Shown here: positions 30,531-48,092 of the stretch, piece after piece | Numbering within the stretch: position 1 is the first letter of the stretch | How the letters are laid out: every line of letters begins with the position of its first letter | Assembly: GCA_047974325.1 (NCBI GenBank) | Contig: JBKECE010000237.1 | Span: 2,323 to 66,322 of the forward strand | Length of the DNA stretch: 64,000 nucleotides | Direction: 5' to 3' | Origin: Dysgonomonas sp. | GTDB lineage: Bacteria > Bacteroidota > Bacteroidia > Bacteroidales > Dysgonomonadaceae | Notes under the pieces: model-generated | Database searches by the model: none | Told to the model about the DNA's origin: nothing | What the model saw: the letters and a program-made list of their open reading frames with translations, nothing else | Position numbers and translations under genes: made by a program

Positions 30531-33065
30531 CTATATAATATCTTTCAGACTCTTGGGGTAATCTATGTCCAGTATAGACTTGTATTCGGCGCAGAAAGAA
30601 TTAAATATATTGTTCGCAATGCCAATCTTCCCGATCTTGTTAAGAGCCCTGCATTTAATTGATAATGCATATTCGTCCGTTTTATCATGGGCAAATATAA
30701 TATCGGCTATCACTATCATCAGATCATTATTGTCACGCAATGACTCTTGTTTTGACAGTGTTACCATTTCGTCGATGATTGTATTTGAATATTCAGCTTT
30801 AAAGCTATCTAACCAAGGAGCCTGTGTAAAGGGCAAAAGAGGTTCGGTCAGCAGCTCCATAGGAAATTCATTCAAATCGCTTACTGATAGATTTTCCTTT
30901 TGTTTAAGATTTTTCAATAAACTGTAAACCTCCATATAGTCGCAATACACTTTATCTGAAAAAGTGATATTCCAGTAAGCATTTTGGCTGTCAATCTGTA
31001 TACCGTCCAATGTTTCCATAAGACTTCTTAGTTTATGAATGTTTACCCTGCGGTTATTTTGTGCATTCTCTTCCGATTTATCAGGCCATAAAAATTCTCT
31101 CAGAGTCACGTTTGATATTCCTTTTTCGTTTTTTTGGTTGTAGAGAATGATCAGGGCAAGCAATTGTTTTAATATGGGAGTGAATTGTTTGGTTATGTTC
31201 TTACCCGTTTTGTCCCACACTTGGAATCCTCCTAAAAATAATATTGAAGATTGGTGGTGCTCTGTTTTTCGGGCAGAGTTGAATGCAAATACAGTTTTGC
31301 CGCCCGATTCTTCCGAGTTTTTTGTTTGAGTCGTTGCAGCTCCATTTTTAGCTTTTTTCCTTTTTTGAAAGAGAGTAATTGCACTGGCAATGACCATGCC
31401 GACGAATAGTATGATGAGCAAGTATACCCAATAACCATGTGTCCAGCTATCTTGTTCTCTTATATCTTCTTCTTTGAGTGGCGGATATGATAAGGAATAT
31501 ATTTTTATGATAGATTTATGATCTTGGATGAAAAGAACAACTGCATAAAGTTCAGATTCTGTTTTATTATAATATAATGTACAAAATGAACTTACATCAT
31601 TAAATGTGAACGGAATGGAATCTGCATATACGACATTTGAACCGTCTTTGAGATTAAATGACCTGAGCAAGAGTGAGGTGTTGCTTTTATTGTTTGGGAA
31701 ACAGAGAGCATAGAATAGCCCTGCATTTTTGTCTACGACAATATTATTGCTTACGACAAAATTAGAAACTGTATTGTTCAGAGTCCAAAGTTTCTTTGTG
31801 TGCAGAGTGTTGACATTTACCTCGTATAAGTCAGAATAATATTGAGTACCAAGTTCGTGCTTGCCTTTTATGTTACCATAACCTCCAAAAATGAGTTTTA
31901 AACTGTCGTTGATCCACCCTGATCCACTCAGATAGCGGGGAGGTATGCTTTCTTTGTAAGGAAGGCTCAGCCACGGGGCATTTTCTTTATTTTTGTATTG
32001 TAATAGATTTTTGTATTGTTAGTTGCCATATCCACACCAAATGTATAGAGCTGAATCTTTAGGTAAAATAAAGGAATTGTGTTGCGAAAAATTAGGATTC
32101 TTTAATTGCAGATCATTCATAGACCATTTATTAGTCAGAAAGTCGAAAATAGAGATCGTTGGAGAATCTAGATCGTAAGACCACAATTCTTTTGTATAAG
32201 GATTATAAATCAACTGATTATTCCTTTCCGTAAATGGTCTGCCGGCTTCGACAGGAATTGTATCAATCCGATTGCTTGTAAGATTTTATTTTAGTAACAA
32301 TGTTCCTTGTGCAAAATAAACACTGTTCTCGGATTCATTATATGCGATTTGAGAAAATTCCGGTAATGAGAACTCTTTTTTGAAAGACCATTTCAAATGT
32401 CTGTCGATGTTCCATATCGGATTTGAAACTGTAGCCTTGAGATGATGCAGGCTGTCATATACAGTGTTTTCAAGGTGTTCACGCAAAGGCCAATAGGCTA
32501 CAGGTTGATTGTCGGCATCAGAAATGCGGATGTTCCGGATCGACATCGGAGGCACATCCGAAGAGCTGAATTTTGTGTGTTTCGATCCTCCGAAATAGAA
32601 ATAAAACTTACTGAGATCTTTGTACTTGCAATCTATTACCAGCTTTTCGTTGTTGAATTCAACTATTATTTTCTGTGAAGAAAACTTCAATTGTACGTGT
32701 ACCCATTTATCCCAATGATAGTTATCTAAAGCTCTTTTTGGGAATGATTTGTAGATCGCATTTCCTTCCACAAAACTCAACATACGCTCATTCCCTGAAA
32801 AATTGGAGATGAGATCAAAGCTTGTGTTATCGTTTGCAATTATTCTGAATATATAGCCAAAGTTATACACTTCTTCTCTCAGCTTAATATCAAAGTCGAG
32901 AATGAATCCATTAGGTAAAAGAAATTCTTTGTTCAGATATAATGTAGTTCTGTCTTCTTGTTTCTCATTGTGGGACAAGAAAGTAATTCCTGTTGACCTA
33001 TTTTCACACCAAATAGAGTTCAGTATAAAGAATGAAAATATTAATAAGAAATTTCTTTTCTGCAT
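30531..33065 (-). pseudogene. Transmembrane one-component regulator (signal peptide - LamG-like - Kelch-like propeller - TM - cytoplasmic SARP-like winged helix + BTAD) interrupted by two in-frame TAA codons (32286..32288 and 32019..32021)
   Basis: Track ORFs 32286..33065, 32019..32213 and 30531..31670 are all in the same frame. The 24 and 116 codons between them are open. They continue the Kelch-like sequence: ...LYIWCGYGN*QYKNLLQYKNKENAPWLSLP...LIFGGYGNIKGKHELGTQYYSDLYEVN.... The TM helix YWVYLLIILFVGMVIASAITLF is followed by QKRKKAKN, which is positive-inside. The cytoplasmic part, ILFLGGFQVWDKTGKNITKQFTPILKQLLALIILY...ISNVTLREFLWPDKSEENAQNNRRVNIHKLRSLM, fits the SARP/OmpR-type wHTH pattern. 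A BTAD-like helical tail follows. Confidence 0.7.
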
Positions 33066-33258: not shown

Positions 33259-33288
33259 TTAATACAATATTAATGGAATAATTAATAC
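33259..33288 (+). promoter_or_regulatory. Three phased direct heptamers TTAATAC / TTAATGG / TTAATAC (11 and 12 bp spacing), candidate activator site
   Basis: The heptamers start at 33259, 33270 and 33282. They lie in the divergent regulator/GH92 intergenic region, and the last one ends 8 nt before the -7 box at 33297. The region is AT-rich, so chance occurrence is possible. Confidence 0.25.
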
Positions 33289-33296
33289 TCAGGATA

Positions 33297-33304
33297 TAAA
33301 TTTG
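33297..33304 (+). promoter_or_regulatory. Candidate -7 box (TAAATTTG) for the GH92 operon
   Basis: Exact TAnnTTTG match ~104 nt upstream of the ATG at 33408. No TTTG -33 element upstream; the heptamer repeats occupy that position. Confidence 0.3.
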
Positions 33305-33407: not shown

Positions 33408-35717
33408 ATGAAAAAGACTTTCTTGTTTTTTCTCTTCGCCGGACTATCATTGACTATTTGCAAAGCAGAACAAAAATTGACTTCGGAATCAAAGTCCGCA
33501 CCGGTTGATTATGTAAATATATTAATGGGCTCTGGGTCTACATACGAATTGTCTGCCGGAAATACGTATCCTGCAATAGCTTTACCATGGGGAATGAATT
33601 TTTGGACACCTCAAACAGGTTCTATGGGCAATGGCTGGAGTTACAAATATAGCGATACAAAGATAAGAGGTTTTAAACAAACACACCAACCCAGTCCTTG
33701 GATCAGAGACTACGGGCAATTCGCCATTATGCCGGTTGTTGGTGCGAAAAAAATAAATCAAGACGAGAGGGCAAGTTGGTTTTCCCATAAATCTGAGACC
33801 GCAACACCTTATTATTATAAAGTCTACTTGGCAGACTATGATGTTACGACCGAAATGACACCGACAGAACGTTCTGCATATTTCCGTTTCACATTTCCTG
33901 AGTCAGATAGTGCATACATTGTTATTGATGCTTTCGATAATGGTTCTTTTGTAAAGGTCAATAAAGAAAATAACACCATAGAAGGTTATACAACTAAAAA
34001 TAGTGGCGGAGTGCCGGATAATTTTAAAAACTATTTTGTGATAAAATTCAATAAACCATTGGCTTCGGCCGAAGTTTGGAATGATTATAAAATTGTTGCC
34101 GGAAAAAATGAAATAAATTCAAATCATGTAGGAGCAATAATCGGTTTCAAAACAAAGAGAGGAGAATTGGTTGAAGCCCAAATAAGTTCATCTTTTATCA
34201 GTACGGATCAGGCTTACAAGAATCTCCAGGAGATAGGCAAAAGAGGTTTCGATCAGATCAAAGACGAGGCCTACAATACATGGAATAGGATATTATCTAA
34301 AATAGAAGTAGATGGTGGCACAGACGATCAATACCGTACATTCTATTCATGTTTGTACAGATCTTTGCTCTTTCCACGCAAATTTTATGAATATGATGTT
34401 GATGGAGCTGTTGTACATTATAGTCCCTACAATGGAAAAGTGCTTCCGGGATATATGTATACCGATACTGGTTTTTGGGACACATTCCGGGCATTGTTTC
34501 CATTCCTTAATTTGATGTTTCCGTCTGTGAACACCGAAATTCAGGAAGGTTTGCTGAATACATATAAAGAGAGTGGATTTCTTCCGGAATGGGCAAGTCC
34601 CGGACACCGCGATTGCATGATTGGTAACAATTCGGCATCAGTGGTAACAGATGCTTATATTAAAGGTGCAAAGGTGAAAAAAGAAGATATCGAAACATTA
34701 TATCAGGCAATGGTACATGGGGCGAATAATGTTGATTCCAAGATTTCTTCGACCGGACGTTTGGGTTACCAATATTACAATGAACTGGGTTATGTGCCTT
34801 ATAATGTGGGCATAAATGAAAATGCTGCCCGCACACTCGAATATGCTTATGATGATTGGTGCATTATGCAACTGGGTCGAAAATTGGGAAAACCTCAAAA
34901 AGAAATAGATGTATATGCCAAACGCAGCCTCAATTATAGAAATCTGTTCGACAAAGAAAGTAAATTGATGCGGGGCAAGAACAAGGATGGTGCATTCCAG
35001 ACTCCCTTCAATCCTTATAAATGGGGTGATGCTTTTACTGAAGGCAATAGCTGGCACTATACATGGAGTGTGTTCCATGATACACAAGGTTTGATTGATT
35101 TGATGGGTGGAAAAGACAATTTTGTGCAGATGTTGGATTCGGTGTTTGTTGTTCCCCCAATATTCGATGACAGCTATTATGGTCAGGTGATACACGAAAT
35201 ACGTGAAATGCAGGTCATGAATATGGGTAATTATGCACATGGAAATCAACCCATTCAGCATATGATCTATCTATACAACTATGCCAGTGCTCCATGGAAA
35301 GCTCAATATTGGTTGCGTGAAGTGATGGACAAATTGTATGCTCCCACTCCGGATGGTTATTGCGGAGATGAAGATAATGGACAAACATCTGTCTGGTACG
35401 TGTTTTCGGCATTAGGGTTCTATCCGGTGTGTCCCGGATCGGAACAATATGTACTTGGCTCCCCGCTATTTAAGAAAGCAATATTGAGCCTCGAAAATGG
35501 GAAAAAAATAGAGATAACTGCCACAAGCAACGATAGAAAGAACCGTTATGTGAAAAAATTGACCATTAATGGAAAAGAATATAAACATAATTGGATCAAC
35601 CATCCGGATCTGCTGAATGGCATGACAATGAAATATGAGATGGATTCCGTTCCCAATAAACAAAGAGGAATAGCTAAAGAAGACTATCCTTATTCATTCA
35701 GTAATGAAAATAAATGA
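33408..35717 (+). CDS. GH92 family alpha-mannosidase (secreted/periplasmic)
   Basis: Signal peptide. GH92 hallmarks are present: NGWSYKYSDTKIRGFKQTHQPSPWIRDYG, YAHGNQPIQHMIYLYNY and GDEDNGQTSVWYVFSALGFYPVCPG. Confidence 0.93.
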   Translation: MKKTFLFFLFAGLSLTICKAEQKLTSESKSAPVDYVNILMGSGSTYELSAGNTYPAIALPWGMNFWTPQTGSMGNGWSYKYSDTKIRGFKQTHQPSPWIRDYGQFAIMPVVGAKKINQDERASWFSHKSETATPYYYKVYLADYDVTTEMTPTERSAYFRFTFPESDSAYIVIDAFDNGSFVKVNKENNTIEGYTTKNSGGVPDNFKNYFVIKFNKPLASAEVWNDYKIVAGKNEINSNHVGAIIGFKTKRGELVEAQISSSFISTDQAYKNLQEIGKRGFDQIKDEAYNTWNRILSKIEVDGGTDDQYRTFYSCLYRSLLFPRKFYEYDVDGAVVHYSPYNGKVLPGYMYTDTGFWDTFRALFPFLNLMFPSVNTEIQEGLLNTYKESGFLPEWASPGHRDCMIGNNSASVVTDAYIKGAKVKKEDIETLYQAMVHGANNVDSKISSTGRLGYQYYNELGYVPYNVGINENAARTLEYAYDDWCIMQLGRKLGKPQKEIDVYAKRSLNYRNLFDKESKLMRGKNKDGAFQTPFNPYKWGDAFTEGNSWHYTWSVFHDTQGLIDLMGGKDNFVQMLDSVFVVPPIFDDSYYGQVIHEIREMQVMNMGNYAHGNQPIQHMIYLYNYASAPWKAQYWLREVMDKLYAPTPDGYCGDEDNGQTSVWYVFSALGFYPVCPGSEQYVLGSPLFKKAILSLENGKKIEITATSNDRKNRYVKKLTINGKEYKHNWINHPDLLNGMTMKYEMDSVPNKQRGIAKEDYPYSFSNENK

Positions 35718-35739
35718 AAATAATAATCTGAAAGTGACC

Positions 35740-38013
35740 ATGAAAGTAAAAAATTGTATTCTTTTCATCCTGCTTATTCCGGTGATACTGTTTTGTCAAA
35801 CAGGTAAGCAAAATAGTGCTGTTTGGCATGACAATGTAAATAAATATGTTGACCCTTATATCGGAACAGGAGGGCATGGTCATACTTTTATGGGAGTAGC
35901 AGCTCCTTTCGGAGCAGTTCAGATAGGTCCCAATAATATAAACAAAGGTTGGGACTGGTGCTCGGGATACCATTATTCGGATTCTGTGCTGATCGGGTTT
36001 TCCCACCTTCACCTCAATGGAACAGGTTGTAGTGATACTGGAGATTTGCTCTTTATGCCTTATACCGGATCTACAAAAACAAATCAGGGAACTCAAGAAA
36101 ATCCTACATCAGGGTATGGGTCACATTATTCACACGAAGATGAGGTGGTCGGAGTTGGCTACTATTCTGTTTTGCTGAAAGACCATAATGTGAAAGTGGA
36201 ATTGACAGCATCGGATCGAGTGGCATTTCATAAATATACTTTTCTGAAAAATGACAAAGAAAAGCATGTGATGATAAATCTGAAAGATGCAAACGGAGAC
36301 GATCAGGTTTTGGGTGCATATATGGAACAAGTTGATGATGTAACCATCAGAGGTTATCGTTTCTCTTCTGGATGGACAAAAAATCAGCAGATTTATTTTG
36401 TTGCTAAATTTTCTTCACCTGTTTCTCTTGCATTGTATGATGGAGATAAAAAAGTTAGTGGAAATAAGTTGAAAGGTTTGAATGTTAAAGGAAATGTTTC
36501 TTTCCCGAAAACGGTTTCGCAATTAAAAGTGAAGGTTGGTATTTCTCCTGTCAGCATGGAAAATGCCCAAGTAAACATAGACAAGGAGATTCCTGCATGG
36601 AATTTTGAAAAAATAGTGAAGCAGACAGAAGAGAAGTGGAACAAGGAATTGAACACGGTGCAAATTCAAAGCAACGATTCTGTTGCTAAGAGGATATTCT
36701 ATTCCGGAATGTACCATGCTTTTATCCAGCCTATTATTTTCAATGATTTCAATAAAGACTACAGAGGAAGTGACAAGAAAGTATATAAGAATGTAAATTT
36801 CAACAATTATACAGTATTTTCTTTATGGGATACGTATCGTGCGGCACATCCGCTTTATACGATTGTTCAGCCGCAAAGAGTTGCCGATTTTGTAAACTCG
36901 ATGATTGCAATAAACGATCAGCAGGGAATGCTCCCTGTTTGGCATCTCTATGGTGGCGACACATACGAAATGATCGGGATACAGTCTGTACCGGTTGTCG
37001 CAGATGCAATCTTGAAAAACTTTTCCGGCTTTGATTATGAAAAAGCATATCAGGCTATGAAAACATCTATGCTCAGTGATTATAAAGGTTTGAACTATTT
37101 GAAAACAAACGGATTTATACCCTCCGATCTGGAAAAAGAATCTGTAGCCAAAGGTTTGGAATATTCTATTGCAGATTGGAGCATAGCTCAAGTTGCAAAA
37201 AAACTGGGAAAAGATGATGATTACAAATTGTTCTCAAAAAGAGCCAAAAATTATCAATATTACTGGGATGATGAGACTCATTTTTTTCGTGGAAAAAATC
37301 AGAACGGAACATGGAGAGAGCCTTTCAGCCCATTTAGCTCTACCCATCGGAATGATGATTATTGCGAAGGCAATGGATATCAATATACATGGCTTGTGCC
37401 CCATGATGTGGAAGGATTGATATCGTTGTTTAAAAGTGAACAATCTTTCGTCAACAAACTGGACAGTTTATTTCAGATTAAAGAATCGCTCGGAGAAGAG
37501 GCTTCTCCGGATATTTCGGGAATGATTGGACAGTATGCTCATGGCAATGAACCGGGACATCATACCATTTATTTGTATGCTTTTGCTGGACAGCAATGGA
37601 AAACAGCACAAAGAGTGAGAGAGGTTTTGGACAACCTATATCACGATCAGCCGGACGGATTGGCCGGAAATGAAGACTGCGGTCAAATGTCCAGTTGGTA
37701 TATATTCTCAACTCTGGGTTTTTATCCGGTGAATCCGGCAAATGGTTTATTCGTGTTCGGCAGTCCATATTTGTTTGATAAGGCAACGATTGCATTGCCC
37801 CAAAACAAAAAATTCGAGATCATAGCTCAGAATAACTCTAAGGATAATATGTACATACAGTCAGTAGAATTAAATGGGAAACCGTATACAAAGTCTTATA
37901 TAATGTATGATGATATTATGAAAGGCGGCACTTTGAAGTTTATAATGGGAAATCGACCAAACTATGAATTTGGAAAAAATCAGCAAGATAGACCAAAATC
38001 AATTGTCGATTGA
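35740..38013 (+). CDS. GH92 family alpha-mannosidase (second paralog)
   Basis: Signal peptide MKVKNCILFILLIPVILFCQ from the ATG at 35740; the track start 35704 overlaps the upstream gene. Motifs: IGFSHLHLNGTGCSD, YAHGNEPGHHTIYLYAF and GNEDCGQMSSWYIFSTLGFYPVNPA. Confidence 0.93.
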   Translation: MKVKNCILFILLIPVILFCQTGKQNSAVWHDNVNKYVDPYIGTGGHGHTFMGVAAPFGAVQIGPNNINKGWDWCSGYHYSDSVLIGFSHLHLNGTGCSDTGDLLFMPYTGSTKTNQGTQENPTSGYGSHYSHEDEVVGVGYYSVLLKDHNVKVELTASDRVAFHKYTFLKNDKEKHVMINLKDANGDDQVLGAYMEQVDDVTIRGYRFSSGWTKNQQIYFVAKFSSPVSLALYDGDKKVSGNKLKGLNVKGNVSFPKTVSQLKVKVGISPVSMENAQVNIDKEIPAWNFEKIVKQTEEKWNKELNTVQIQSNDSVAKRIFYSGMYHAFIQPIIFNDFNKDYRGSDKKVYKNVNFNNYTVFSLWDTYRAAHPLYTIVQPQRVADFVNSMIAINDQQGMLPVWHLYGGDTYEMIGIQSVPVVADAILKNFSGFDYEKAYQAMKTSMLSDYKGLNYLKTNGFIPSDLEKESVAKGLEYSIADWSIAQVAKKLGKDDDYKLFSKRAKNYQYYWDDETHFFRGKNQNGTWREPFSPFSSTHRNDDYCEGNGYQYTWLVPHDVEGLISLFKSEQSFVNKLDSLFQIKESLGEEASPDISGMIGQYAHGNEPGHHTIYLYAFAGQQWKTAQRVREVLDNLYHDQPDGLAGNEDCGQMSSWYIFSTLGFYPVNPANGLFVFGSPYLFDKATIALPQNKKFEIIAQNNSKDNMYIQSVELNGKPYTKSYIMYDDIMKGGTLKFIMGNRPNYEFGKNQQDRPKSIVD

Positions 38014-38056
38014 TTAAAAAAAAGAATCATTCAATTAACAACTAAATTTTAATCTT

Positions 38057-39376
38057 ATGAAAATGAAAAATTACAAAAAATCTTTGTTAACAAGTATGTT
38101 CGCTTGTTCTCTGTTCTTAAATGCTTTTGCTCAGACATCTCCGTTTGCCGGAGGTAGCGGAACAAAAAAAGATCCTTATTTGATCGAAACACCTCGTCAG
38201 TTCGATGCAATTCGTGACTATAGAGATAAAAATTTTAAACTGAATGCAGACCTTGACTTCACAGGATATTTGAGAGAAGACGGCGGAACTTGGTGGCCCG
38301 TTGGAGAATGGGGCAGCGGGGACAATGCTGCTGAACGTTTCAGTGGAACTTTTAATGGAAACGGACATAAAATAAAGAATCTTGTTGTAGAAAGAACAGC
38401 TTCCGACCTAAGTATTTTTGGTGTAACTGATGGTGCTCAGATTTCTAACCTTATTGTTGAAGGCTGTGAAATTACAGGTGAAGGCCGTTTAGGTGTATTG
38501 ACAGGAGCTACATTCCGTACCGAGATAGATCAGGTTGCAGTGATCAATAGCAAATGTCTGAACACATTGTCCGATCATGGATCCAATGCCGGGGGCATTA
38601 CCGGACCTCTGTTTGCCGGAAGCACAATTACAAATAGTTATTCGATAGGCGGAAAGGTTTTTGGAAAAGATGCAATAGGTGGAGTCTGCAGCCAGATTAA
38701 TGACGGCAGCACGATTTCTAATTGCTATACAACTTGTGACGTAGAGGGAAATACAAATGTTGGAGGTATTACAGGAAACACCAATGGTGGTTATATATTG
38801 AATTCCGTAGCAATAAATACGGCAATCACCTGTCATGATGTGAATGATGGCCGCATAGCAGGCACTGTGAACGGTAGCAATCTTTTGTCCAATAATTATG
38901 CTTATAGATACACAACCGTGAATGGTGGAGTGAATGGAGAAATGGTGACAGATGTATCTGTTAATGCAAAAAACGGAGCAAATGCGACTGAAGATGAATT
39001 GACATCCGTATCTTTCTATGCCACCAATCTGACATGGGATATTGCGGCAGACAATTCAACTGTTTGGAAGGTTGATGCAACAATTTTCAAATATCCGGTA
39101 CTATCTTGGCAAACTGAAGGACCTGGTTCCGGCATTGTCAATGTTGAAGAACAAAATGCAAATAAATATAAAGTTTTTGTAATTGGTAATTCTGTTGTCG
39201 TCAATAATCTACAGGCAAACGATGATGTATCTGTATATTCTCTTTCAGGCACACTTGTTGGCAGATCTAAAGCTATAAATTCTACAGAATCTATTCCGGT
39301 TACCAACAATGGATTATATGTTGTAAAAATAGCATCACAAGGACAATCTTATATTTTTAAAGCAATAAAGAGATAA
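38057..39376 (+). CDS. Secreted GLUG-motif repeat protein with T9SS C-terminal sorting domain
   Basis: Signal peptide. GSGTKKDPYLIETPRQFDAIRD...FSGTFNGNGHKIKNLVV is followed by repeated GG(I/V)xG...I.N(C/S)Y units: NAGGITGPLFAGSTITNSYS, IGGVCSQINDGSTISNCYT and VGGITGNTNGGYILNSVA. The C-terminal ~75 aa (VFVIGNSVVVNNL...NGLYVVKIASQGQSYIFKAIKR) are CTD-like. Confidence 0.75.
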   Translation: MKMKNYKKSLLTSMFACSLFLNAFAQTSPFAGGSGTKKDPYLIETPRQFDAIRDYRDKNFKLNADLDFTGYLREDGGTWWPVGEWGSGDNAAERFSGTFNGNGHKIKNLVVERTASDLSIFGVTDGAQISNLIVEGCEITGEGRLGVLTGATFRTEIDQVAVINSKCLNTLSDHGSNAGGITGPLFAGSTITNSYSIGGKVFGKDAIGGVCSQINDGSTISNCYTTCDVEGNTNVGGITGNTNGGYILNSVAINTAITCHDVNDGRIAGTVNGSNLLSNNYAYRYTTVNGGVNGEMVTDVSVNAKNGANATEDELTSVSFYATNLTWDIAADNSTVWKVDATIFKYPVLSWQTEGPGSGIVNVEEQNANKYKVFVIGNSVVVNNLQANDDVSVYSLSGTLVGRSKAINSTESIPVTNNGLYVVKIASQGQSYIFKAIKR

Positions 39377-39388
39377 TTTCTATAGACT

Positions 39389-39441
39389 AAACCATCACTT
39401 ATCTTATTCTATAATTAGATACGATAAATAGGTGATGGTTT
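39389..39441 (+). terminator. Possible terminator/attenuator hairpin between the GLUG gene and susC-like gene
   Basis: 10-bp stem aaaccatcac / gtgatggttt with a long (~33 nt) loop, followed by a T-rich tract (tttactttttttg). Confidence 0.4.
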
Positions 39442-39499
39442 TTACTTTTTTTGCTTCTTATGTAATCTAATTAACCTAACATTTAAATTCAAATAGAGG

Positions 39500-42400
39500 A
39501 TGATGAATAATGTTGTTCTAAAATCATCTGTCAGAAAACAAGTACCTGTCACGTTCGGGATTCGCAGCTTTCTGACAGTTCTGATTATTTTTAGTTTCCA
39601 GATCGCAGCTTTTGCTCAAAATGGCAAACAAATATCCGGTTTTGTCAAAGACAAGAATGGCGAAAGCCTTATCGGAGTTGCAGTTTTGGTCAAAGGTGAA
39701 ACAAGAGGAACTACAACGGATTTCGATGGAAAATACAATCTGACCGTGTCTGACAAAACAGTGTTGGTGTTTTCCTATCTGGGTTTTCAAACACAAGAAG
39801 TTACTGTCGGAGATAGAACGGTTTTGGACGTAATGATGCAAAGTGATAGCCAGTTGATAGATGAAGTTGTTGTTGTCGGTTATGGAACGCAACGCAAAGC
39901 AACCCTTACGGGAGCTGTGTCAACGGTGGGGACAAATGAAATTAACACAGCCACAGCATCGAACGTAAAAGACCTTTTGGCTGGCAAGCTTGCGGGTGTC
40001 AGAGTGCAGCAGCAAACCGGAGAACCCGGTTCTTATTCTTCCAAAATGGATATTCGCGGTTTAGGCTCTCCTCTCATTGTCATAGATGGTGTGATCAGGG
40101 ATGAAGCTGCCTTTCAACGTCTCGAGCCTAATGAAATAGAAAGCGTAAGTGTCTTGAAAGATGCCTCGGCTGCTGTTTATGGTATGCGTGCAGCAAATGG
40201 AGCTGTGGTAGTTACCACTAAAAGAGGACAAAATGGCAAGACTAAGATTGAATATTCCGGAACTATCGGGTTTCAGAATCCGTCGGGTTTGCCCGATGTG
40301 CTGAATGCTTCGCAATATGTAGAATTGGTGCGTGAAGCCGATAAAAATATGGGGCGCGGCATTAATGCTACTTACACGGAAGCGGATCTGGCTCGTTTGA
40401 GTCAATCTGGAGGAACGGATTGGTATAGTCTTATGATCCGCGATGCAGCACTACAAACACATCACAACATATCGGCAAGCGGAAGCACCGACCGAGTGAA
40501 CTATTTCTTGTCTTTCGGTTATTATGCCGAGGATGGAATATGGAAAAGCGGAGATTTAAATTATGAACGTTACAATCTGAGGTCTAATCTCGGATTCACT
40601 ATAACAAAAGGTCTGAAAGCAGATGTGATCATCAATGCAACAACAGATGCCAAGAATCAACCTTATAAGGATACTTGGGAACAATTCAAATCTTTATGGC
40701 TACTCAAACCTGTGGACACTCCGTATGCTAACGATAATTCGGATTATCTAAACGATGTGCTCTATGGCTTGAACCCTTTGGCTACGACGAACGCAGACTT
40801 GTCAGGATATAAAAAGAGTGAAAATAAATTGTTCAATACATCATTTTCCCTAACCTATGATACACCTTTCCTAAAAGGACTGACAGCTAAGTTATTATAT
40901 AGTTATGACTATCAAATGACTGAGAACAAGAATTTCCAGAAATCATATTCTTTATATAAATATGATGGTGCTTCGGATCTATACACAGCTTATCTATACA
41001 ATAATCCGTCATCACTCTATCGACGGACGTGGAATCAGTCGCAAAATATGTTTCAGGCATCGCTCAACTATGAAACGTCTATAGACAAAAAACATAATAT
41101 CAAGGGGCTTCTGTTGTTCGAGAAAAGCAGCCTGAAAAAAGATAATTTCTATGGATCGGCCAATTTTGATATGGATGCAGTGGACGAGTTATATGCCACA
41201 TCGAAAGAAGATCAGGTGGTGTCGTCTGATATAAACAATATCTGGGAACAAAAAAATGCAGGACTCATTGGTCGTGTCAATTATGACTATCTGTCAAAAT
41301 ATCTTTTGGAACTTAGTTTCAGATATGATGGATCTTCCAAATTCGCAAAAGGATATCGTTGGGGATTTTTTCCTGCCATTTCGGGAGGATACAGAATCTC
41401 TGAAGAAAATTTCATGAAAGAAAACAATAGCCTCAGATTTATAACCAACCTGAAATTGAGAGCATCGTACGGTAGCATGGGAGACGACAGCTCCTCGACT
41501 TATCAATATCTGACCGGATATGAATATCCGGGAGCAAGTTATGTGTTTGGAGATAATGCTTATAGTGGACTGGCTTTCAAATCACTGGCTAACGAAAATT
41601 TATCGTGGTTCAAATCCAAAACATTGAATCTGGGAACAGACATTGAATTGTGGAATGGTTTGCTATCTTCTGAGATTGACTTTTTCTGGCGATATCGTTC
41701 AGGATTGTTTGCAACGAGGGATGCCCAGATTCCGGGAACATTCGGAGCATCTTTTCCTCAAGAAAATCTCGAAAAAGATTTGTATAAAGGCTTTGAGGTA
41801 ACATTGACACACAGAAATAAAATTAATAATGTCAACTATTCGTTAAGTGGCAATTTTGCAATCACAAGGAGTATGTGGCGTTCGCGGATTGAGGGTGATT
41901 ACAAGAATTCATACGATAGATGGAGAAATAGTTATCAGGGAAGATATAAGGATATGGGCTGGGCATATGGATCAGAAGGTCAGTTTGTTTCCATGCAGGA
42001 TATTTGGAACTCTCCAATTCAGGATGGGCAAGGAGGTGCAACACAATTGCCCGGCGACTGGAAATATGAGGACTGGAATGGAGACGGCGTGATAGATGAT
42101 AAAGATTACTATCCGAACACATACGAATATGCCGATGGAAGCAGCAATCCCAAAATGACCTTCGGGTCAACTATTACGGCCGAATGGAAAGGCTTTGACA
42201 TAAATATCTTATTCCAAGGTGCAGCAGGATTCAATGTACGCTATCTTGAACAAATGCAATATCCATTGTGCTTCAGTGGAGGAGGTTTGGCCTATTTCTA
42301 CGACCGTTGGCATCAGGATAACGATGGAAATTGGATTTCGGGAAGATGGCCTACCACTCGCGATGCAGGTTCATACGCAACAAATTATAAAAATGCATTG

Positions 42401-42637
42401 CAAACAACTTACAATGCCTCTTATCTGAGAATAAAGAGTGCGGAATTAGGTTATACCCTGCCTCAAAAACTGATCCAAAGATCGGGTCTGGAGAGCGTAC
42501 GCTTTTCAGTGAGCGGATACAATCTGATCACATTCTCTAACCTTGACTTTGTGGATCCGGAGCATCCTGACGGGTCTTATGGATACCTCTATCCAATCAT
42601 GAGAAACTTCAACTTTGGAGTCAATGTTGTATTCTAA
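39500..42637 (+). CDS. susC: SusC-family TonB-dependent outer-membrane transporter (no STN/anti-sigma signalling extension)
   Basis: The signal peptide is followed directly by a CarboxypepD_reg domain (ISGFVKDKNGESLIGVAVLVKGETRGTTTDFDGKYNL...FSYLGFQTQEV). The SusC TonB-box/plug follows: DEVVVVGYGTQRKATLTGAVS...SVLKDASAAVYGMRAANGAVVVTTKRG. The C-terminus is ...NFNFGVNVVF. Confidence 0.93.
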   Translation: MMNNVVLKSSVRKQVPVTFGIRSFLTVLIIFSFQIAAFAQNGKQISGFVKDKNGESLIGVAVLVKGETRGTTTDFDGKYNLTVSDKTVLVFSYLGFQTQEVTVGDRTVLDVMMQSDSQLIDEVVVVGYGTQRKATLTGAVSTVGTNEINTATASNVKDLLAGKLAGVRVQQQTGEPGSYSSKMDIRGLGSPLIVIDGVIRDEAAFQRLEPNEIESVSVLKDASAAVYGMRAANGAVVVTTKRGQNGKTKIEYSGTIGFQNPSGLPDVLNASQYVELVREADKNMGRGINATYTEADLARLSQSGGTDWYSLMIRDAALQTHHNISASGSTDRVNYFLSFGYYAEDGIWKSGDLNYERYNLRSNLGFTITKGLKADVIINATTDAKNQPYKDTWEQFKSLWLLKPVDTPYANDNSDYLNDVLYGLNPLATTNADLSGYKKSENKLFNTSFSLTYDTPFLKGLTAKLLYSYDYQMTENKNFQKSYSLYKYDGASDLYTAYLYNNPSSLYRRTWNQSQNMFQASLNYETSIDKKHNIKGLLLFEKSSLKKDNFYGSANFDMDAVDELYATSKEDQVVSSDINNIWEQKNAGLIGRVNYDYLSKYLLELSFRYDGSSKFAKGYRWGFFPAISGGYRISEENFMKENNSLRFITNLKLRASYGSMGDDSSSTYQYLTGYEYPGASYVFGDNAYSGLAFKSLANENLSWFKSKTLNLGTDIELWNGLLSSEIDFFWRYRSGLFATRDAQIPGTFGASFPQENLEKDLYKGFEVTLTHRNKINNVNYSLSGNFAITRSMWRSRIEGDYKNSYDRWRNSYQGRYKDMGWAYGSEGQFVSMQDIWNSPIQDGQGGATQLPGDWKYEDWNGDGVIDDKDYYPNTYEYADGSSNPKMTFGSTITAEWKGFDINILFQGAAGFNVRYLEQMQYPLCFSGGGLAYFYDRWHQDNDGNWISGRWPTTRDAGSYATNYKNALQTTYNASYLRIKSAELGYTLPQKLIQRSGLESVRFSVSGYNLITFSNLDFVDPEHPDGSYGYLYPIMRNFNFGVNVVF

Positions 42638-42650
42638 ATATCAAATAATT

Positions 42651-44441
42651 ATGAAGATAAAATATATAATATTATTATTGCTGACAGTTGGCTTTTTCGG
42701 GTCTTGCGAACTGGATGTCAATCCTAAAAATATTGTTCAGGATGAGTTGGTTTTTTCTTCCGAATCGGGAATCAGGGCTTATTTTGTCACTCTCTATTCA
42801 GACTTGCCTGTCGAAGATTTTAAATTTGGAAAAAATGGATTCAATGCCAGCGGAAATCAGACCTATCTGGCTTTTGTTTCCGGCGAAGCCATCGCTAAAG
42901 ATGATATCAGTAATATCGGAGATGGAACTTGGTGGGGAGCTTGGGATTATGGACGTATCCGCAGAGTGAATTATTTTATTCAGACTTTACCGAAATATAA
43001 AGATAAATATTCCGAAGATAAATATAATGCATGGATGGGCGAAGCCTATTTTATTCGAGCCTATTGCTATTTCTCGATGGTGAAACGATATGGAGGTGTG
43101 CCCATCTTGAAGGAACCACAGGTGTGGACGGGAGATGTGAATGCCCTGAAAGTTCCTCGTAATACCGAGAAAGACTGCTACGATTTCATTGCCGAAGATT
43201 TAGATTTGGCTGCCGATTTGATGGAAAAGGGCAAAACAATACTTTCTGATGCATCATATTCAGGACGGGCAAATGAATTTATCGCTTATGCCTTGAAATC
43301 GAGAGCTATGCTGTATGCAGGAAGCATTGCTCGCTATGGCTCGGTGAATTTGAATGGCTTGGTGGGAATTGAATCACAATATGCCGACCATTATTTTACG
43401 TTGGCTTTTGAAGCTGCTGAAAAAGTTGTGAGTTCGGGCAAATACAGCCTTTACAGGGGCAATACCAACAAAGAGAAGAATTTTACTGAACTGTTTTTGG
43501 CAGATAACAGCAGTGAAAATATTTTTGTGAAAAGCTACAAGCTCAATGTCAATGCTCATAGTTGGGATATATATTGTGTGCCTTATCAATATAGGGGAAC
43601 AGGCTACTCTTCGAGCATAAATCCGACTTTGGATCTGGCTGAGTTGTTTGAATATCAGGATGGATCGGGTGTGAATATTACACAGAAAGCACAAACCATG
43701 CGGTTTGATAAACCAACTGATATTTTTTCAGGATTGGATGCTCGGTTTGGAGGCAGCATCATTTATCCGAATTCAACATTTAAGGGAACGACCTGCACTC
43801 TGCAAAAAGGTCTGATCGTAGAAGACGGTTCTAAGAAAGAAAGTGCAAACAGCGATACCGTGACCTATAGGGCACAGAATGGTAAAACCTATCGGGTTGT
43901 AGGTGAAAGTGGTGTGGGCAAATATTCAGGAAATATGACGGGTTTTGTGATCCGCAAATATTTGAATGAAAGCCAAACTGAAATGAGAGAGAACTATTCT
44001 ACACAACATTGGATAGATTTCCGGTTGGCTGAGATTTACTTGAATGGAGCAGAAGCTGCTGCGGAGCTCAACAATGCAACGGATCAAAGTGAAGCTTTGG
44101 TCTGGATGAACGACCTGAGAGACAGAGCAGGACTCAAAAACTGGAGCAGTTCGGAGTTGACTATAGACAATGTCCGCAAAGAAAGAAGAGTTGAACTTGC
44201 TTTTGAAAATCACGCATATTGGGATTTGAGAAGGTGGCATATAGCCGATAAAATATTTGAAACTACCCGTTTGAGGTCTTTATTTCTGTATCAGGATGTG
44301 AGAGACGACAAATATGTTTTTGAAGTGGGATATCCCAACAGTTATTATTATACATTTGATGTGAAGATGTACTATGAAAAAATACCTGATTCCGAAATAT
44401 CAAAGAATGGATTGTTGGTACAAAACCCTTATTATAACTAA
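42651..44441 (+). CDS. susD: SusD/RagB-family outer-membrane glycan-binding lipoprotein
   Basis: Lipoprotein signal MKIKYIILLLLTVGFFGSC from the ATG at 42651. It lies immediately downstream of susC. SusD-type TPR-like motifs include GEAYFIRAYCYFSMVKRYGGVPI, RLAEIYLNGAEA and ERRVELAFENHAYWDLRRW. Confidence 0.9.
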   Translation: MKIKYIILLLLTVGFFGSCELDVNPKNIVQDELVFSSESGIRAYFVTLYSDLPVEDFKFGKNGFNASGNQTYLAFVSGEAIAKDDISNIGDGTWWGAWDYGRIRRVNYFIQTLPKYKDKYSEDKYNAWMGEAYFIRAYCYFSMVKRYGGVPILKEPQVWTGDVNALKVPRNTEKDCYDFIAEDLDLAADLMEKGKTILSDASYSGRANEFIAYALKSRAMLYAGSIARYGSVNLNGLVGIESQYADHYFTLAFEAAEKVVSSGKYSLYRGNTNKEKNFTELFLADNSSENIFVKSYKLNVNAHSWDIYCVPYQYRGTGYSSSINPTLDLAELFEYQDGSGVNITQKAQTMRFDKPTDIFSGLDARFGGSIIYPNSTFKGTTCTLQKGLIVEDGSKKESANSDTVTYRAQNGKTYRVVGESGVGKYSGNMTGFVIRKYLNESQTEMRENYSTQHWIDFRLAEIYLNGAEAAAELNNATDQSEALVWMNDLRDRAGLKNWSSSELTIDNVRKERRVELAFENHAYWDLRRWHIADKIFETTRLRSLFLYQDVRDDKYVFEVGYPNSYYYTFDVKMYYEKIPDSEISKNGLLVQNPYYN

Positions 44442-44456
44442 AAAAACAAGAAGAAA

Positions 44457-45218
44457 ATGAAGAAAATATTTTATATATTCGGGTTAAGCGCACTAATATT
44501 CACTTCTTGTGACTATTTTGAGCATGACAATTATGATGCACCTGATGCCACATTGAAAGGTGTTGTGAAAGATGCGAAAACTAATGATAATTTATCGACA
44601 GAGATCGCAGCGAGCTTTAAGATAGAATATTATGAGCTGAGCTGGGAAGAAGCAGGACACAGCAACACCGAAGCCCAGATTTTTTGGAACAAAGAAGATG
44701 GTATGTTCAACAATACTAAAATATTTAGTGGAAAGTATCGCATAACTTTGAAGGAGGGAGCTTTCTATGCACCTGAATCGCAGATAGTACAGTTGCAGAG
44801 CAATAAGACAACCGAACTCAATTTTTCAGTAGTACCTTATGCAAGGGTGCAGATTGACGATATCCAGTTGAACGGAACTGCAGATAATAACAATCTGGTG
44901 ATTAAGTATACAGTGCAAGATACAGAATCGGAAATCAATACGGAAACAACCGACGAAGATTTGTATACATTGAGCGAGGCTCGCGTTTTCATATCGAGCA
45001 AATCTCCCAATGTGGGAGTGAACAATAATGAGACGAAATATACGCTGAATGCAAAAAAGAATGTCTCCAACTATACGCCGGGCACCGCTAAATCATATAC
45101 TGAAACCAATGTAAAGAACTTGCCTGCCGGAACATGGTGGATACGCATCGGTGTCAGAACCGACAATCCTCAGAAGAGATACAATTTTACGCCGGTTAAG
45201 GAAATCACTGTTTCTTGA
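44457..45218 (+). CDS. PUL-associated surface lipoprotein in the SusE/F position (DUF3823-like)
   Basis: Lipobox LIFTSC, followed by NYDAPDATLKGVVKDAKTNDNL, a carboxypeptidase-regulatory-like beta-sandwich start as seen in DUF3823-type proteins. The family call rests on recollection of the pattern only. Confidence 0.5.
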   Translation: MKKIFYIFGLSALIFTSCDYFEHDNYDAPDATLKGVVKDAKTNDNLSTEIAASFKIEYYELSWEEAGHSNTEAQIFWNKEDGMFNNTKIFSGKYRITLKEGAFYAPESQIVQLQSNKTTELNFSVVPYARVQIDDIQLNGTADNNNLVIKYTVQDTESEINTETTDEDLYTLSEARVFISSKSPNVGVNNNETKYTLNAKKNVSNYTPGTAKSYTETNVKNLPAGTWWIRIGVRTDNPQKRYNFTPVKEITVS

Positions 45219-45248
45219 TTGCCATTTTATAATTGATTAAAGAAAAGG

Positions 45249-47186
45249 ATGAAAATAAAATTCGCAATAGCACTATTTTTTATCACATTGGTTCCGTCTG
45301 CAACAGTCTGTGCCAATGTGGTAAAGATGGTTCAGGAGAAGTCCGATGAACCGTCTAATCAAGCACTAGTGATTCCTATGGAATCTTCCTCAGTTTCAGT
45401 TTTGTATGATCCGTCAGACAAAGCTTATTTTTCAGGCGATGGAATTAAGGGTACATCAGATGGACTGATTATGGACCTCGGAAATATAGATTTTGGCGAT
45501 AAGCTTTATAATAAAATCTGGATTGAAATGTCCAATATGGCAAACGAAAGCGATTCTGCTAAATTTCAGTTTTATATTGATGGAGAACTAATCTTGCCCG
45601 ATCTTTCGTTGGATATTCCTGTCAATGAACCTGTTATTTCCTACGAAAGTTCAAAGTCTCCCCAAAGTGGAATGTTTTTTAAAAATGCACAGTCCGGCAT
45701 CGTTACAGTCTTTGATGTACGCAAAGATGAAAGTCTGGCAAAACTTTCTTCGATGGTGATGCAAGGTATAATCAATCAGCAAACTGCACAGGTGTATCTT
45801 TACGTTGAAGGACATCATATCACGCAGCTGGCAGAAACCGGCTTGCAAATAAATCTGGAAGAGAGATTGAGCAATGATAAATATGGAGCTTTAGGGGCAA
45901 TGGTCAATAAGTATGGAGATTTGTTTAATAAACTTGTCGTTTGGGACGAAAACAAAGAGTGGACTTGGTGTCTGGCTCAGATGATTTCTGCACAACAGGG
46001 TGGAATTCCTGTGACGGAAGACATAAAAAACTATATAGTGAACGACCTTGGATGGACAAAAGATGTGTATGATATCCGAAATTTGTGGACAAATAAACTT
46101 GATGCTTATCAGTGGGCGATAGATAATCTGGCAGCAAACTGTCATCCGAATATTGGTTTTTCTGCAGGTTTGCGTAACGATTATGTTTCTGCTCCATGGA
46201 AAATATATGATTATGCGGCAGCGACAAAAGGCTTTGTCTTTTATCTGAGCGAAAAAAATTCGGACGAAGCCCAGATGATTGAAAAAATCTGTCAGAAGAT
46301 GAATTATCAACCGGGAGCTTCTATCATGGGATATGGAGCAAGTGATGATGGAGATGGCCTGAATTCTATTATAAATAAATATAATGCGGGATTTATCGTG
46401 AGCGACTATTATGCCAACGGTAGTTTCTGGTGTTCATTCCCATCCAAGTCATTTAATCAGCGCAAAGGCAAACCCATTGATGCAAAAGCAGGAAAAGTCT
46501 ATGTGAGTTTCATTTGGAGTGATGGTGATAACATACAGTTCGATGCAAACAAACTGTACCTGATGTTTAAGAATGCAACAGGCAGAGGTGAAATACCTGT
46601 CGGGGTTACTCTTGCACCGGGATTGCAGGAAATCAATCCATTCTTGCTGGAATATTTTTATAAGAACCTGACTCCGAATGACGAACTGATGGCAGGACCT
46701 TCCGGTTTTCAGTTCATTTATGGTGATTCATACAATTCCTCAACATACAATACATGGCTCGGAATGAATAAGGAATGGATAGAAACAGCCGGATTCAATA
46801 CGGCCTGCCTGTGGAACACGACCGGAAATGCTTTTGACGAATATATGAGAACCTGCAACTTGCAAGGAATATTTGACGGATGGAGCACCGCAAACAATAA
46901 ATATATTAATAATGTGGTTGCCGTCAATCAGGGAACTCATTGCTTCAATGAAGGCGATGTATACAATGATCTGGTCAAGGCAAAACCGGATGCCAATAAA
47001 CCTATTTTCAGAAATTTATATCTCATTGCGGCCAACTATGGTGGTGATGATGGTTATCAGAAACTGAAAAGAGAATTGCTGAAGCTGGAAAATGATTATC
47101 CCGACAGATATGTATACCTTTTGCCGATGGATTTGTGTGCCACGCTAAAAAAATACATAGATGAAAATGGAGGCAGCTATAATTAA
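45249..47186 (+). CDS. Secreted 645-aa protein: N-terminal CBM-like module + large uncharacterised putative glycoside-hydrolase domain (possibly GxGYxYP-family-like)
   Basis: Signal peptide. The N-terminal segment NIDFGDKLYNKIWIEMSNMANESDSAKFQFYIDGE resembles the CBM-like module of the next gene. The body contains LSSMVMQGIINQQTAQVYLY, IWSDGDNIQF and AGPSGFQFIYGD, which recall the GxGYxYP putative hydrolase family. This was not verified by a search. Confidence 0.55.
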   Translation: MKIKFAIALFFITLVPSATVCANVVKMVQEKSDEPSNQALVIPMESSSVSVLYDPSDKAYFSGDGIKGTSDGLIMDLGNIDFGDKLYNKIWIEMSNMANESDSAKFQFYIDGELILPDLSLDIPVNEPVISYESSKSPQSGMFFKNAQSGIVTVFDVRKDESLAKLSSMVMQGIINQQTAQVYLYVEGHHITQLAETGLQINLEERLSNDKYGALGAMVNKYGDLFNKLVVWDENKEWTWCLAQMISAQQGGIPVTEDIKNYIVNDLGWTKDVYDIRNLWTNKLDAYQWAIDNLAANCHPNIGFSAGLRNDYVSAPWKIYDYAAATKGFVFYLSEKNSDEAQMIEKICQKMNYQPGASIMGYGASDDGDGLNSIINKYNAGFIVSDYYANGSFWCSFPSKSFNQRKGKPIDAKAGKVYVSFIWSDGDNIQFDANKLYLMFKNATGRGEIPVGVTLAPGLQEINPFLLEYFYKNLTPNDELMAGPSGFQFIYGDSYNSSTYNTWLGMNKEWIETAGFNTACLWNTTGNAFDEYMRTCNLQGIFDGWSTANNKYINNVVAVNQGTHCFNEGDVYNDLVKAKPDANKPIFRNLYLIAANYGGDDGYQKLKRELLKLENDYPDRYVYLLPMDLCATLKKYIDENGGSYN

Positions 47187-47198
47187 GAACAAATCTTT

Positions 47199-48092
47199 AT
47201 GAGAATGAATAAGGTATTATTATCATTAGTTACATTATTTTCTATTGTAGTCACTTTGCAAGCAGAAGATTTAGACATACCGATGAGCAATCTGTCAGGT
47301 ATCGCTCTCAATATCAATGTTAAGATAGAAAATGTCGGTACTGATGGTGCAAAATATGATAGAACGACACAGTCTATTATCAATACTAGCAATGGCACAA
47401 TTATCAGTATCTCAAAAGTTGATTTTGGAAGTGGACGATACGGTAGTTATAGCTATTTGTATGTGGAATACACAAACCCTGAGGAGGTGACAGACGATGC
47501 TTTCTTTGATGTCTATCTGGACAATGGTACGACCTTGGTTGCATCCATTCCTGTAGAGAAAACGCTGGAAGGAGAGTATGTGAAAAGTTCGTCTACAATG
47601 CAGGTCTGTATGAACAACCAGCGCAATATTTATGTAAAATGGCGCAATCATGCGGCCGATTTGAAGACTTTCGGAGCATACGAAAGAAAGCCCTTGGTGG
47701 AAGTCAGTGCCGTGAAAACCGGATCGCCGCTCGTATATAAATTTTCATCAGCTACGTTTGATGCAATAGAAGGTGTCCATAATCTGAAAATGATGTGGGT
47801 GAAACAGTCAGCTAACGTTTCGGCCATCTATTTTGATAATACGGCTTACAATTCGATAGAACCCGAAACAGAGAATCCATCATATTCGATCAGAACAATG
47901 AATCGCGTTTTGTTCATCACTTCAACTGAGCCTTTAAAACAGGTTGAGGTATATTCAATTGATGGTAAATTGCTATTTAACAGTTCGCAAAAGGGTAATT
48001 CGTTCGAGATACCGCTTCAAAATTTGATTTCAATTTTAAAAATAACAGATTCATCAGGAAATAAAAGTATCAGGAGAATCATATGTAATTGA
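47199..48092 (+). CDS. Secreted tandem CBM-like (CBM6/35-type pattern) protein with T9SS C-terminal sorting domain
   Basis: Signal peptide. Contains VDFGSGRYGSYSYLYVEYTNPEEVTDDAFFDVYLDNGTTLVASIPV and a second module with FDAIEGVHNLKMMWVKQSANVSAIYF. The CTD-like tail is VEVYSIDGKLLFNSSQKGNSFEIPLQNLISILKITDSSGNKSIRRIICN. Confidence 0.6.
   Translation: MRMNKVLLSLVTLFSIVVTLQAEDLDIPMSNLSGIALNINVKIENVGTDGAKYDRTTQSIINTSNGTIISISKVDFGSGRYGSYSYLYVEYTNPEEVTDDAFFDVYLDNGTTLVASIPVEKTLEGEYVKSSSTMQVCMNNQRNIYVKWRNHAADLKTFGAYERKPLVEVSAVKTGSPLVYKFSSATFDAIEGVHNLKMMWVKQSANVSAIYFDNTAYNSIEPETENPSYSIRTMNRVLFITSTEPLKQVEVYSIDGKLLFNSSQKGNSFEIPLQNLISILKITDSSGNKSIRRIICN

Follow-up and report, generated by a model that had tools for sequence, protein, structure and literature searches.

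A probable BT3853-type membrane-tethered regulator gene with two doubtful in-frame stops beside a GH92/SusCD locus of Dysgonomonas sp.

We analyzed a 64,000-nucleotide stretch of a metagenome-assembled genome (MAG) of Dysgonomonas sp. (GenBank assembly GCA_047974325.1, contig JBKECE010000237.1, forward-strand positions 2,323–66,322; hereafter the window, whose own numbering is used throughout). The subject is the minus-strand region 30531..33065, which lies divergent to a polysaccharide utilization locus (PUL) with GH92 and SusC/SusD genes. This region probably constitutes a single gene, whose product would be a one-component activator of the BT3853 ('SARP-OmpR') class tethered to the inner membrane, and the two stop codons that interrupt it most likely do not represent a fixed pseudogene. 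The main addition of this analysis is a fold-level assignment to SARPs (Streptomyces antibiotic regulatory proteins) and a conserved candidate operator for the BT3853 family.

A single frame and its BT3853-type relatives

The gene and its two internal stops are as follows.
30531..33065, minus strand: conceptual regulator gene, 844 aa; probable BT3853-type membrane-tethered SARP-like PUL sensor
32286–32288, minus strand: in-frame TAA at codon 260 (stop 1), between propeller blades 1 and 2; TAT (Tyr) in the sister allele
32019–32021, minus strand: in-frame TAA at codon 349 (stop 2), replacing the Tyr in the GGYGNY signature of blade 3; TAC (Tyr) in the sister allele

Translation of the minus strand gave a single frame of 845 codons including the terminal stop (conceptual protein, 844 aa) with exactly two internal stops, both TAA. 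The three open reading frames (ORFs) listed for the region, 32286..33065 (259 aa), 32019..32213 (64 aa), and 30531..31670 (379 aa), share this frame. Each ORF of the listing was begun at the first start codon following a stop, and the spacers of 24 and 116 codons between the three contain neither a stop nor an ATG, GTG, or TTG. The NCBI annotation places separate hypothetical proteins at the locus, of which MFV0469502.1 (259 aa) and MFV0469500.1 (379 aa) were seen. The initial annotation, made from the sequence alone, had described one gene rather than three: a frame broken only by the two TAA codons, spacers lacking starts and stops, and a Kelch-like propeller continuing over the stops. Translation confirmed the frame and the spacers, and the Pfam Kelch match (aa 304–432) spans stop 2 without a break.

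Over 100 intact proteins of 820–900 aa aligned with the conceptual protein from end to end, with E values down to 1e-264 and a query coverage of 97–100%; the observation of a single frame is therefore far beyond chance. None of the 120 homologs listed is split like the window gene, and the shorter matches look like contig-end fragments. A sister allele encodes the intact 844-aa protein P0127 (run SRR10595374), which falls in the same 90% cluster as the window protein. Its gene differs from that of the window at 55 of 2535 bases with zero indels (97.8% nucleotide identity), and its frame is uninterrupted, whereas the window copy carries the two TAA codons. Outside the species, the nearest intact relatives are approximately 50% identical and belong to B. 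nordii and B. salyersiae. A scan of the GTDB representative genomes gave 201 confirmed loci in Bacteroidales, Cytophagales, Flavobacteriales, and Chitinophagales, none closer than 49% identity, which indicates that the species is absent from the representatives. Exact-product look-ups of the 259-, 379-, and 64-aa fragments in public assemblies returned nothing beyond the MAG itself, and no further alleles emerged when JGI metagenome contigs were scanned for exact patterns surrounding each stop. The intact sister allele supports the one-gene description, as do the intact orthologs of approximately 840 aa adjoining GH92/SusCD loci, for which the initial annotation had proposed to look.

Both TAA codons are one-base changes from Tyr codons. 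The column of stop 1 holds Tyr in most of the 21 aligned full-length homologs, and the Tyr of the GGYGNY signature at stop 2 is kept in 98% of 62 homologs.

The family includes a B. thetaiotaomicron member of 859 aa (locus L066), which is collinear with the window protein over residues 26–844 at 34% identity. Its gene is followed by SusC, SusD, DUF3823, GxGYxYP, and a GH92. The published PUL BT3853–BT3862 contains two GxGYxYP proteins, a GH92, and a GH99 (PMC4071793). Because the gene order of L066 matches this content, we infer that the L066 gene is BT3853, the α-mannan sensor of PUL69/MAN-PUL3; the window protein would thus have full-length collinear homology to the PUL69 gene itself. BT3853 is reported to be the sensor genetically needed for the induction of PUL69 by α-mannan (bioRxiv 10.1101/2025.07.13.664583), and the manuscript text of Cuskin 2015 does not mention it. 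'SARP-OmpR', the regulator class of BT3853 in PULDB, is a listed category of PUL regulators (PMC7641319). The view of the initial annotation that the regulator class was undescribed is not upheld, given this listing and the B. thetaiotaomicron member that heads the MAN-PUL3/PUL69 gene order; the class is known though little characterised, and the window gene is a further member of it.

The window gene resembles BT3853 in domain order and in adjoining a SusC-SusD-DUF3823-GxGYxYP-GH92 set, which is also present in the PUL of the window. The two differ in that the window gene is divergent to its PUL whereas BT3853 lies upstream of its own, the PUL of the window begins with two GH92 genes, and the window copy has two in-frame stops. 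They are paralogs and not orthologs. When the cytoplasmic domain was used as the query, 1240 clusters at 50% identity were obtained, and most of the best 150 are 830–890 aa in length with the domain at the C-terminus. Databases still label family members 'hypothetical', and no Pfam or NCBIfam model covers the output domain.

Periplasmic sensor, membrane anchor, and SARP-like domain

The predicted parts of the conceptual protein, in order from the N-terminus and all on the minus strand, are as follows.
33006..33065, minus strand: N-terminal signal peptide MQKRNFLLIFSFFILNSIWC, approximately residues 1–20; modeled helix at residues 2–17, low confidence at 15–20
32421..32990, minus strand: LamG/concanavalin-like β-sandwich, periplasmic, approximately residues 26–215; model confidence about 90
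31488..32387, minus strand: Kelch-type six-bladed β-propeller, periplasmic, approximately residues 227–526; 23 strands in 6 blade-like groups in the model
31368..31433, minus strand: single transmembrane helix, hydrophobic core at residues 545–566 (modeled helix, 541–571), followed by the positive-inside QKRKKAK
31269..31355, minus strand: cytoplasmic linker, approximately residues 571–599, disordered (model confidence <50) and poorly conserved, with variable alignment columns
30951..31268, minus strand: cytoplasmic OmpR-type winged helix-turn-helix (wHTH), approximately residues 600–705; modeled β-strands, three helices, and a β-hairpin wing
30534..30950, minus strand: all-helical BTAD-like domain, approximately residues 706–844, from the model and Foldseek

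A full-length AlphaFold2 (AF2) model built with 63 sequences had a mean predicted local distance difference test (pLDDT) score of 88.3; the confidence values in the list are in this unit. A hydrophobic N-terminus is present in all homologs of the alignment, and the signal peptide is presumably cleaved. Against the Protein Data Bank (PDB), Foldseek matched the β-sandwich to laminin LG5 (1qu0_C; E 4.7e-6; target-normalised template modeling (TM) score 0.60 over 211 columns) and also to LG4-5 pairs. Pfam Laminin_G_3 was found in 2 of 22 homologs, and the support for the LamG assignment lies at the fold level only. The propeller was matched by Pfam PF24681 (E 5.8e-9; 36 bits, under the 50-bit gathering cut-off), by LZTR1 in a PDB sequence-profile search (5.5e-9), and by LZTR1 (9mez_J; E 2.4e-10) as well as FBXO42 and KLHDC2/3 in Foldseek; Kelch families matched all 22 homologs scanned with Pfam. 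The transmembrane helix with its QKRKKAK, noted in the initial annotation, recurs in the model at the same place, and the order of signal peptide, LamG-like domain, Kelch propeller, transmembrane helix, and SARP-like part given there was borne out by AF2 and Foldseek.

The last 255 residues were modeled separately with a pLDDT of 91.6; strands, three helices, and the hairpin of a wing come in the OmpR-type order, and further helices follow. The only significant PDB structure matches of this cytoplasmic part were SARP domains, from AfsR (8hvr_I, E 3.9e-6; also 8k60) and EmbR (2fez, E 2.5e-4; also 2ff4), which filled the top six Foldseek places over approximately 255 columns, i.e. the whole length, with a probability of 1.00 and TM scores of 0.57–0.60. 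These results suggest a wHTH followed by a BTAD fold, as in the SARP family. Sequence profiles gave a different picture. Neither Trans_reg_C (PF00486) nor BTAD (PF03704) of Pfam matched the window protein at E up to 1, and among the 22 homologs BTAD was found in one (E 0.0042) and Trans_reg_C in none. The window protein had no match in NCBIfam, and the PDB sequence profile returned Kelch proteins only, with no wHTH or BTAD. The SARP/BTAD call of the initial annotation therefore stands at the level of the predicted fold, whereas the two Pfam profiles miss the protein. No description of the operator or of a SARP fold for this family was found in the papers that could be searched, and a search for SARP together with Bacteroides or PUL gave one passing mention only.

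Compared with known regulators, the 245-aa cytoplasmic part is similar to the SARPs AfsR (PDB 8hvr/8k60) and EmbR (PDB 2fez/2ff4) in predicted fold, an OmpR-type wHTH and then a helical BTAD. It is 13–16% identical to them in sequence and lies under the Pfam thresholds for Trans_reg_C and BTAD. SARPs are soluble, whereas the window protein is predicted to be membrane-tethered with its SARP-like part C-terminal to a periplasmic sensor; it also belongs to Bacteroidota rather than Actinobacteria, with a different partner sigma factor and promoter type (-7/-33). ToxR and CadC likewise combine, in one polypeptide, periplasmic sensing with a DNA-binding domain coupled to it through one membrane span. 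However, they have an N-terminal wHTH and a C-terminal sensor, and the reversed order in the window protein makes a signal peptide necessary. The gene is like those of hybrid two-component systems (HTCS) in being dedicated to one adjacent PUL. In contrast to HTCS, neither the window protein nor any of the 22 homologs contains a histidine kinase, receiver, or AraC-type HTH domain detectable by Pfam.

The adjacent PUL and a candidate operator

The elements on the other side of the regulator start are as follows.
33408..48092, plus strand: predicted target PUL; GH92, GH92, a protein of 439 aa of unknown function, SusC, SusD, DUF3823, GxGYxYP, and a protein of 297 aa of unknown function, all with intact ORFs
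33259..33285, plus strand: candidate operator TTAATACAATATTAATGGAATAATTAA of three ATTAA(T/C) units spaced 11 + 12 bp, between the regulator and GH92; sole match in the 64-kb window
33297..33304, plus strand: match TAAATTTG to the -7 promoter motif TAnnTTTG, 11 nt after the candidate operator; the GH92 start codon follows 104 nt further on

The gene adjoins a PUL containing SusC and SusD, and this arrangement recurs in its relatives. The nearest orthologs (B. nordii, B. salyersiae, and MAGs of Dysgonomonadaceae, Barnesiella, and Porphyromonadaceae) adjoin the same PUL genes at 56–72% protein identity and are divergent to GH92-GH92-(439-aa unknown)-SusC, a set for which the identity is 60–72%. 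Within 10 kb of 80 homologous loci, a SusC match was present at 40, a match to the second GH92 query (GH92b) at 22, and a match to the first (GH92a) at 17. Among the scanned ORFs of the window there was no HTCS, extracytoplasmic function (ECF)/anti-sigma, AraC, LacI, GntR, or SusR-type gene; beyond the regulator itself, regulatory genes are limited to one for sigma-54 and one for a receiver-PglZ protein. That the gene is a candidate regulator of the PUL, as the initial annotation had suggested, agrees with the synteny, with the lack of another PUL-type regulator in the window, and with the family-specific candidate operator on the PUL promoter. Homology and this candidate operator together suggest that the gene would serve the glycan-dependent induction of the adjacent PUL.

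The triple ATTAA(T/C) repeat was found by comparing the upstream regions of orthologs; when the intergenic region was searched for repeats of any kind, AT-rich noise was all that appeared. The pattern TTAA-N8-TTAA-N7-TTAA has one match in the window against 0.06 expected. We surveyed the element in the 80 loci, allowing spacers of 7–8 nt and using composition-preserving shuffles as the control. It occurred within 500 nt upstream of the regulator at 23 of the loci (26 matches, against 0.38 in the shuffles) and in the 500 nt after the stop of the regulator at 19 (21 matches, against 0.35), and 40 of the 80 loci contained at least one copy. Copies outside the window include those at L001 8005–8031 and 9823–9849, L005 9810–9836, L008 9770–9796, L066 12738–12763, and L078 12641–12666.

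The motif TAnnTTTG, which we take to be the Bacteroidetes -7 promoter consensus, follows the element at 11–12 nt toward the PUL genes in the window and in L001, L003, L004, L023, L005, L008, L066, and L078. The offset is 11 nt in the window, at two promoters each in four Bacteroides loci, at one Dysgonomonadaceae locus, and at one Barnesiella locus; it is 12 nt at the promoter upstream of SusC in another Dysgonomonas and in the B. thetaiotaomicron locus (L066), where the probable BT3853 has the same triple element before a -7 box. In view of this fixed offset, the repeats would occupy about -50 to -22, in place of a -33 element. SARPs follow a comparable rule, with repeats 11 or 22 bp apart and the 3' repeat approximately 8 bp away from the -10 element, and AfsR gives a docking site for sigma region 4 (PMC10936776). 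By analogy, the geometry of the triple ATTAA element, a putative binding site, resembles the SARP promoter rule: in both cases short repeats one helical turn apart abut the -10 equivalent and overlap the -35 equivalent (PMC10936776). The window element differs from SARP sites in consisting of three repeats of an AT-rich palindromic hexamer, and its role in activation is presumed.

Two variations of the element were observed. In more distant members (Prolixibacteraceae and MAGs of other Bacteroidales), five ATTAA units (3 + 2) precede the -7 box of the regulator-SusC promoter (L018 3312–3400, L026 5941–6030, L041 12583–12670, and L044 4836–4920), which suggests binding of a higher-order oligomer. 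The loci of the B. nordii/salyersiae type (L001, L003, L004, and L023; approximately 8005–8060 and 9745–9850) have two copies, one before GH92 and one before an extra divergent gene beside the regulator, and this implies two regulated promoters there versus one in the window.

In the mechanism that we propose, a manno-oligosaccharide from α-mannan or a similar glycan would bind the periplasmic LamG-Kelch module. The signal would cross the single transmembrane helix and change the oligomeric state or the orientation of the cytoplasmic domains. The SARP-like domains could then bind to the three repeats, which lie at about -50 to -22, and stand in for a -33 element, and RNA polymerase would be recruited as shown for AfsR, switching on the GH92/SusCD operon 33408..48092. 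We put forward only tentatively, as somewhat less probable than its opposite, the broader idea that the whole BT3853-type family (>1000 clusters at 50% identity in Bacteroidota) acts as membrane-tethered SARPs in which a periplasmic LamG-Kelch glycan sensor places a SARP fold directly on three ATTAA repeats, and these take over from the -33 element at PUL promoters. If true, SARP-style 'sigma adaptation' would occur outside Actinobacteria and from the membrane. BT3853-type sensors control α-mannan and related PULs in gut and environmental Bacteroidota; with a SARP fold assigned and a conserved candidate operator placed at a constant distance from the -7 box, the mechanism can be tested directly, and the regulons of the family could be predicted from sequence alone.

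For two genes of the PUL, 38057–39376 (plus strand) and 47199–48092 (plus strand), no Pfam family reached significance; the matches, to Por_Secre_tail in one and to CBM_6 in the other, are weak. The syntenic PULs of relatives keep both genes at 28–58% identity.

Reality of the two stops, and flanking genes

Both stops fall within one short segment.
31820..32309, strand not applicable: patch of doubtful sequence, 490 bp; the exact gap between two Logan contigs, holding both stops and the changes I390K, Q403H, Y411S, and L416V

From run SRR30067260, two Logan contigs match the window at 100% identity, one over 8424 bases with its end at 32310 and the other over 6470 bases with its end at 31819, which leaves the patch unbridged. 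The patch differs from the sister allele by 9 transversions and 4 transitions, whereas the rest of the 14.7-kb comparison contains 53 and 153 (Fisher p = 0.0019), a background ratio of about 1 to 2.9; no other 490-bp bin of the comparison exceeds 5 transversions. Among 62 homologs, 179 positions are conserved in at least 85%. The window protein deviates at 15 of these, of which 12 are common to the intact allele, and the 3 that are specific to the window (X349, Q403H, and Y411S) all lie inside the patch. The gene outside the patch looks constrained, because the cytoplasmic domain shows 1 nonsynonymous and 10 synonymous differences from the sister allele. These results suggest that the patch may be thinly or inconsistently backed by reads and that the MAG consensus may be unreliable there. 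The stops are most likely consensus errors, or a minority variant taken up by the MAG assembler, rather than a fixed natural pseudogene.

A genuine, recently fixed pseudogene, in which no full-length sensor is made, the PUL promoter is silent, and the inducible use of a mannose-rich glycan is lost before the rest has decayed, is unlikely but is the most serious of the other explanations. The deposited MAG sequence does contain both stops, NCBI annotated separate fragment proteins, the changes I390K, Q403H, and Y411S are derived and affect conserved propeller residues, and the kept frame and intact PUL are what a very recent event would give. However, relaxed selection would spread damage over the gene, whereas the damage is limited to 490 bp; the patch is dominated by transversions and the rest of the comparison is not; and an independent assembly with a perfect match on either side is interrupted precisely where the patch begins and ends, which is unexpected for fixed, normally covered sequence. 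An unbridged, transversion-rich patch with all of the window-specific damage to conserved residues therefore makes fixation the less likely reading. Where the initial annotation had left very recent inactivation and artefact side by side, the evidence leans toward artefact or weakly supported sequence.

The same contig border could instead mark a branch of the assembly graph, since the first transversion of the patch, at 31820, is the base directly after the contig end at 31819. The population would then be polymorphic or locally hypermutated, with intact and damaged propeller segments co-existing (selection for a silenced sensor being one example of a cause) and the assembler taking the damaged path; approximately two thirds of the differences in the patch are transversions, as untargeted base replacement would give. 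We regard this as highly improbable, since the other border (32310) lies 24 nt from the nearest known variant and no second strain is evident in the 6–8 kb flanks. As a residual reading, the patch would be a real, localized inactivation of the sensor domain within the population. A diversity-generating retroelement target was rejected: the patch has neither a template repeat nor a further copy elsewhere in the window, the ORFs of 150 aa or more that were scanned contain no reverse transcriptase domain, and the substituted bases are not adenine-specific.

Functional split products (a secreted 259-aa LamG fragment and a truncated transmembrane-wHTH fragment), or reading of TAA as Tyr, is the least credible explanation and can be nearly dismissed. 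Both stops stand for Tyr codons, but TAY to TAA is among the simplest one-base routes to a stop, and the recoding of TAA to Tyr was rejected, every other large ORF of the window being unbroken. The 379-aa ORF retains the transmembrane helix and the entire DNA-binding part. Against its use, the 116 codons after stop 2 have no start codon, the sole candidate is a TTG within blade 5–6 of the propeller, and no such split occurs among the homologs listed.

Several points weigh against our preferred interpretation, that of a single BT3853-type activator gene with doubtful stops. The stops, judged here from assemblies, may be real, and two stops with several missense changes would also fit a sensor domain that has begun to decay. 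In total, the patch (13 differences per 490 bp) diverges no more than neighbouring bins do, so errors would require the natural divergence at this place to be low. SRR30067260 was taken as the source run of the MAG from its 100% identity. The equation of the L066 gene with BT3853 follows gene order and not an accession, the cluster record reading only 'hypothetical protein' with no locus tag. The SARP assignment rests on a predicted structure with a TM score of approximately 0.59 and 13–16% identity, and Pfam and NCBIfam offer no significant support. ATTAAT is palindromic, so that the term 'direct repeat' depends on spacing and flanks, and it is we who infer the ligand, the direction of activation, and the binding of the operator.

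If the stops were real, this PUL would have ceased to be inducible in the strain very recently, since its operator, promoter, and ORFs are all still intact. The apparent pseudogene, which NCBI splits into hypothetical proteins, probably should not be counted as lost mannan-PUL regulation before the reads are checked.

Directly downstream of the regulator are a secreted GDSL esterase-Big_2-Laminin_G_3 fusion (28670–30307, minus strand) and a 1593-aa BspA-type leucine-rich repeat (LRR) protein with a type IX secretion system (T9SS) sorting tail (23649–28430, plus strand). In L083, both genes likewise adjoin the intact allele. Another break of the SRR30067260 contig falls at 25350, inside the LRR gene. 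Directly after the mannan-type PUL lies a pectate lyase (48430–50997, plus strand) that carries CBM77 and, at its C-terminus, a T9SS sorting domain. Just past the PUL is the receiver-PglZ protein (51501–53045, minus strand); no other signalling protein besides the regulator lies close to the locus, and a search for a DNA-binding domain in it found none.

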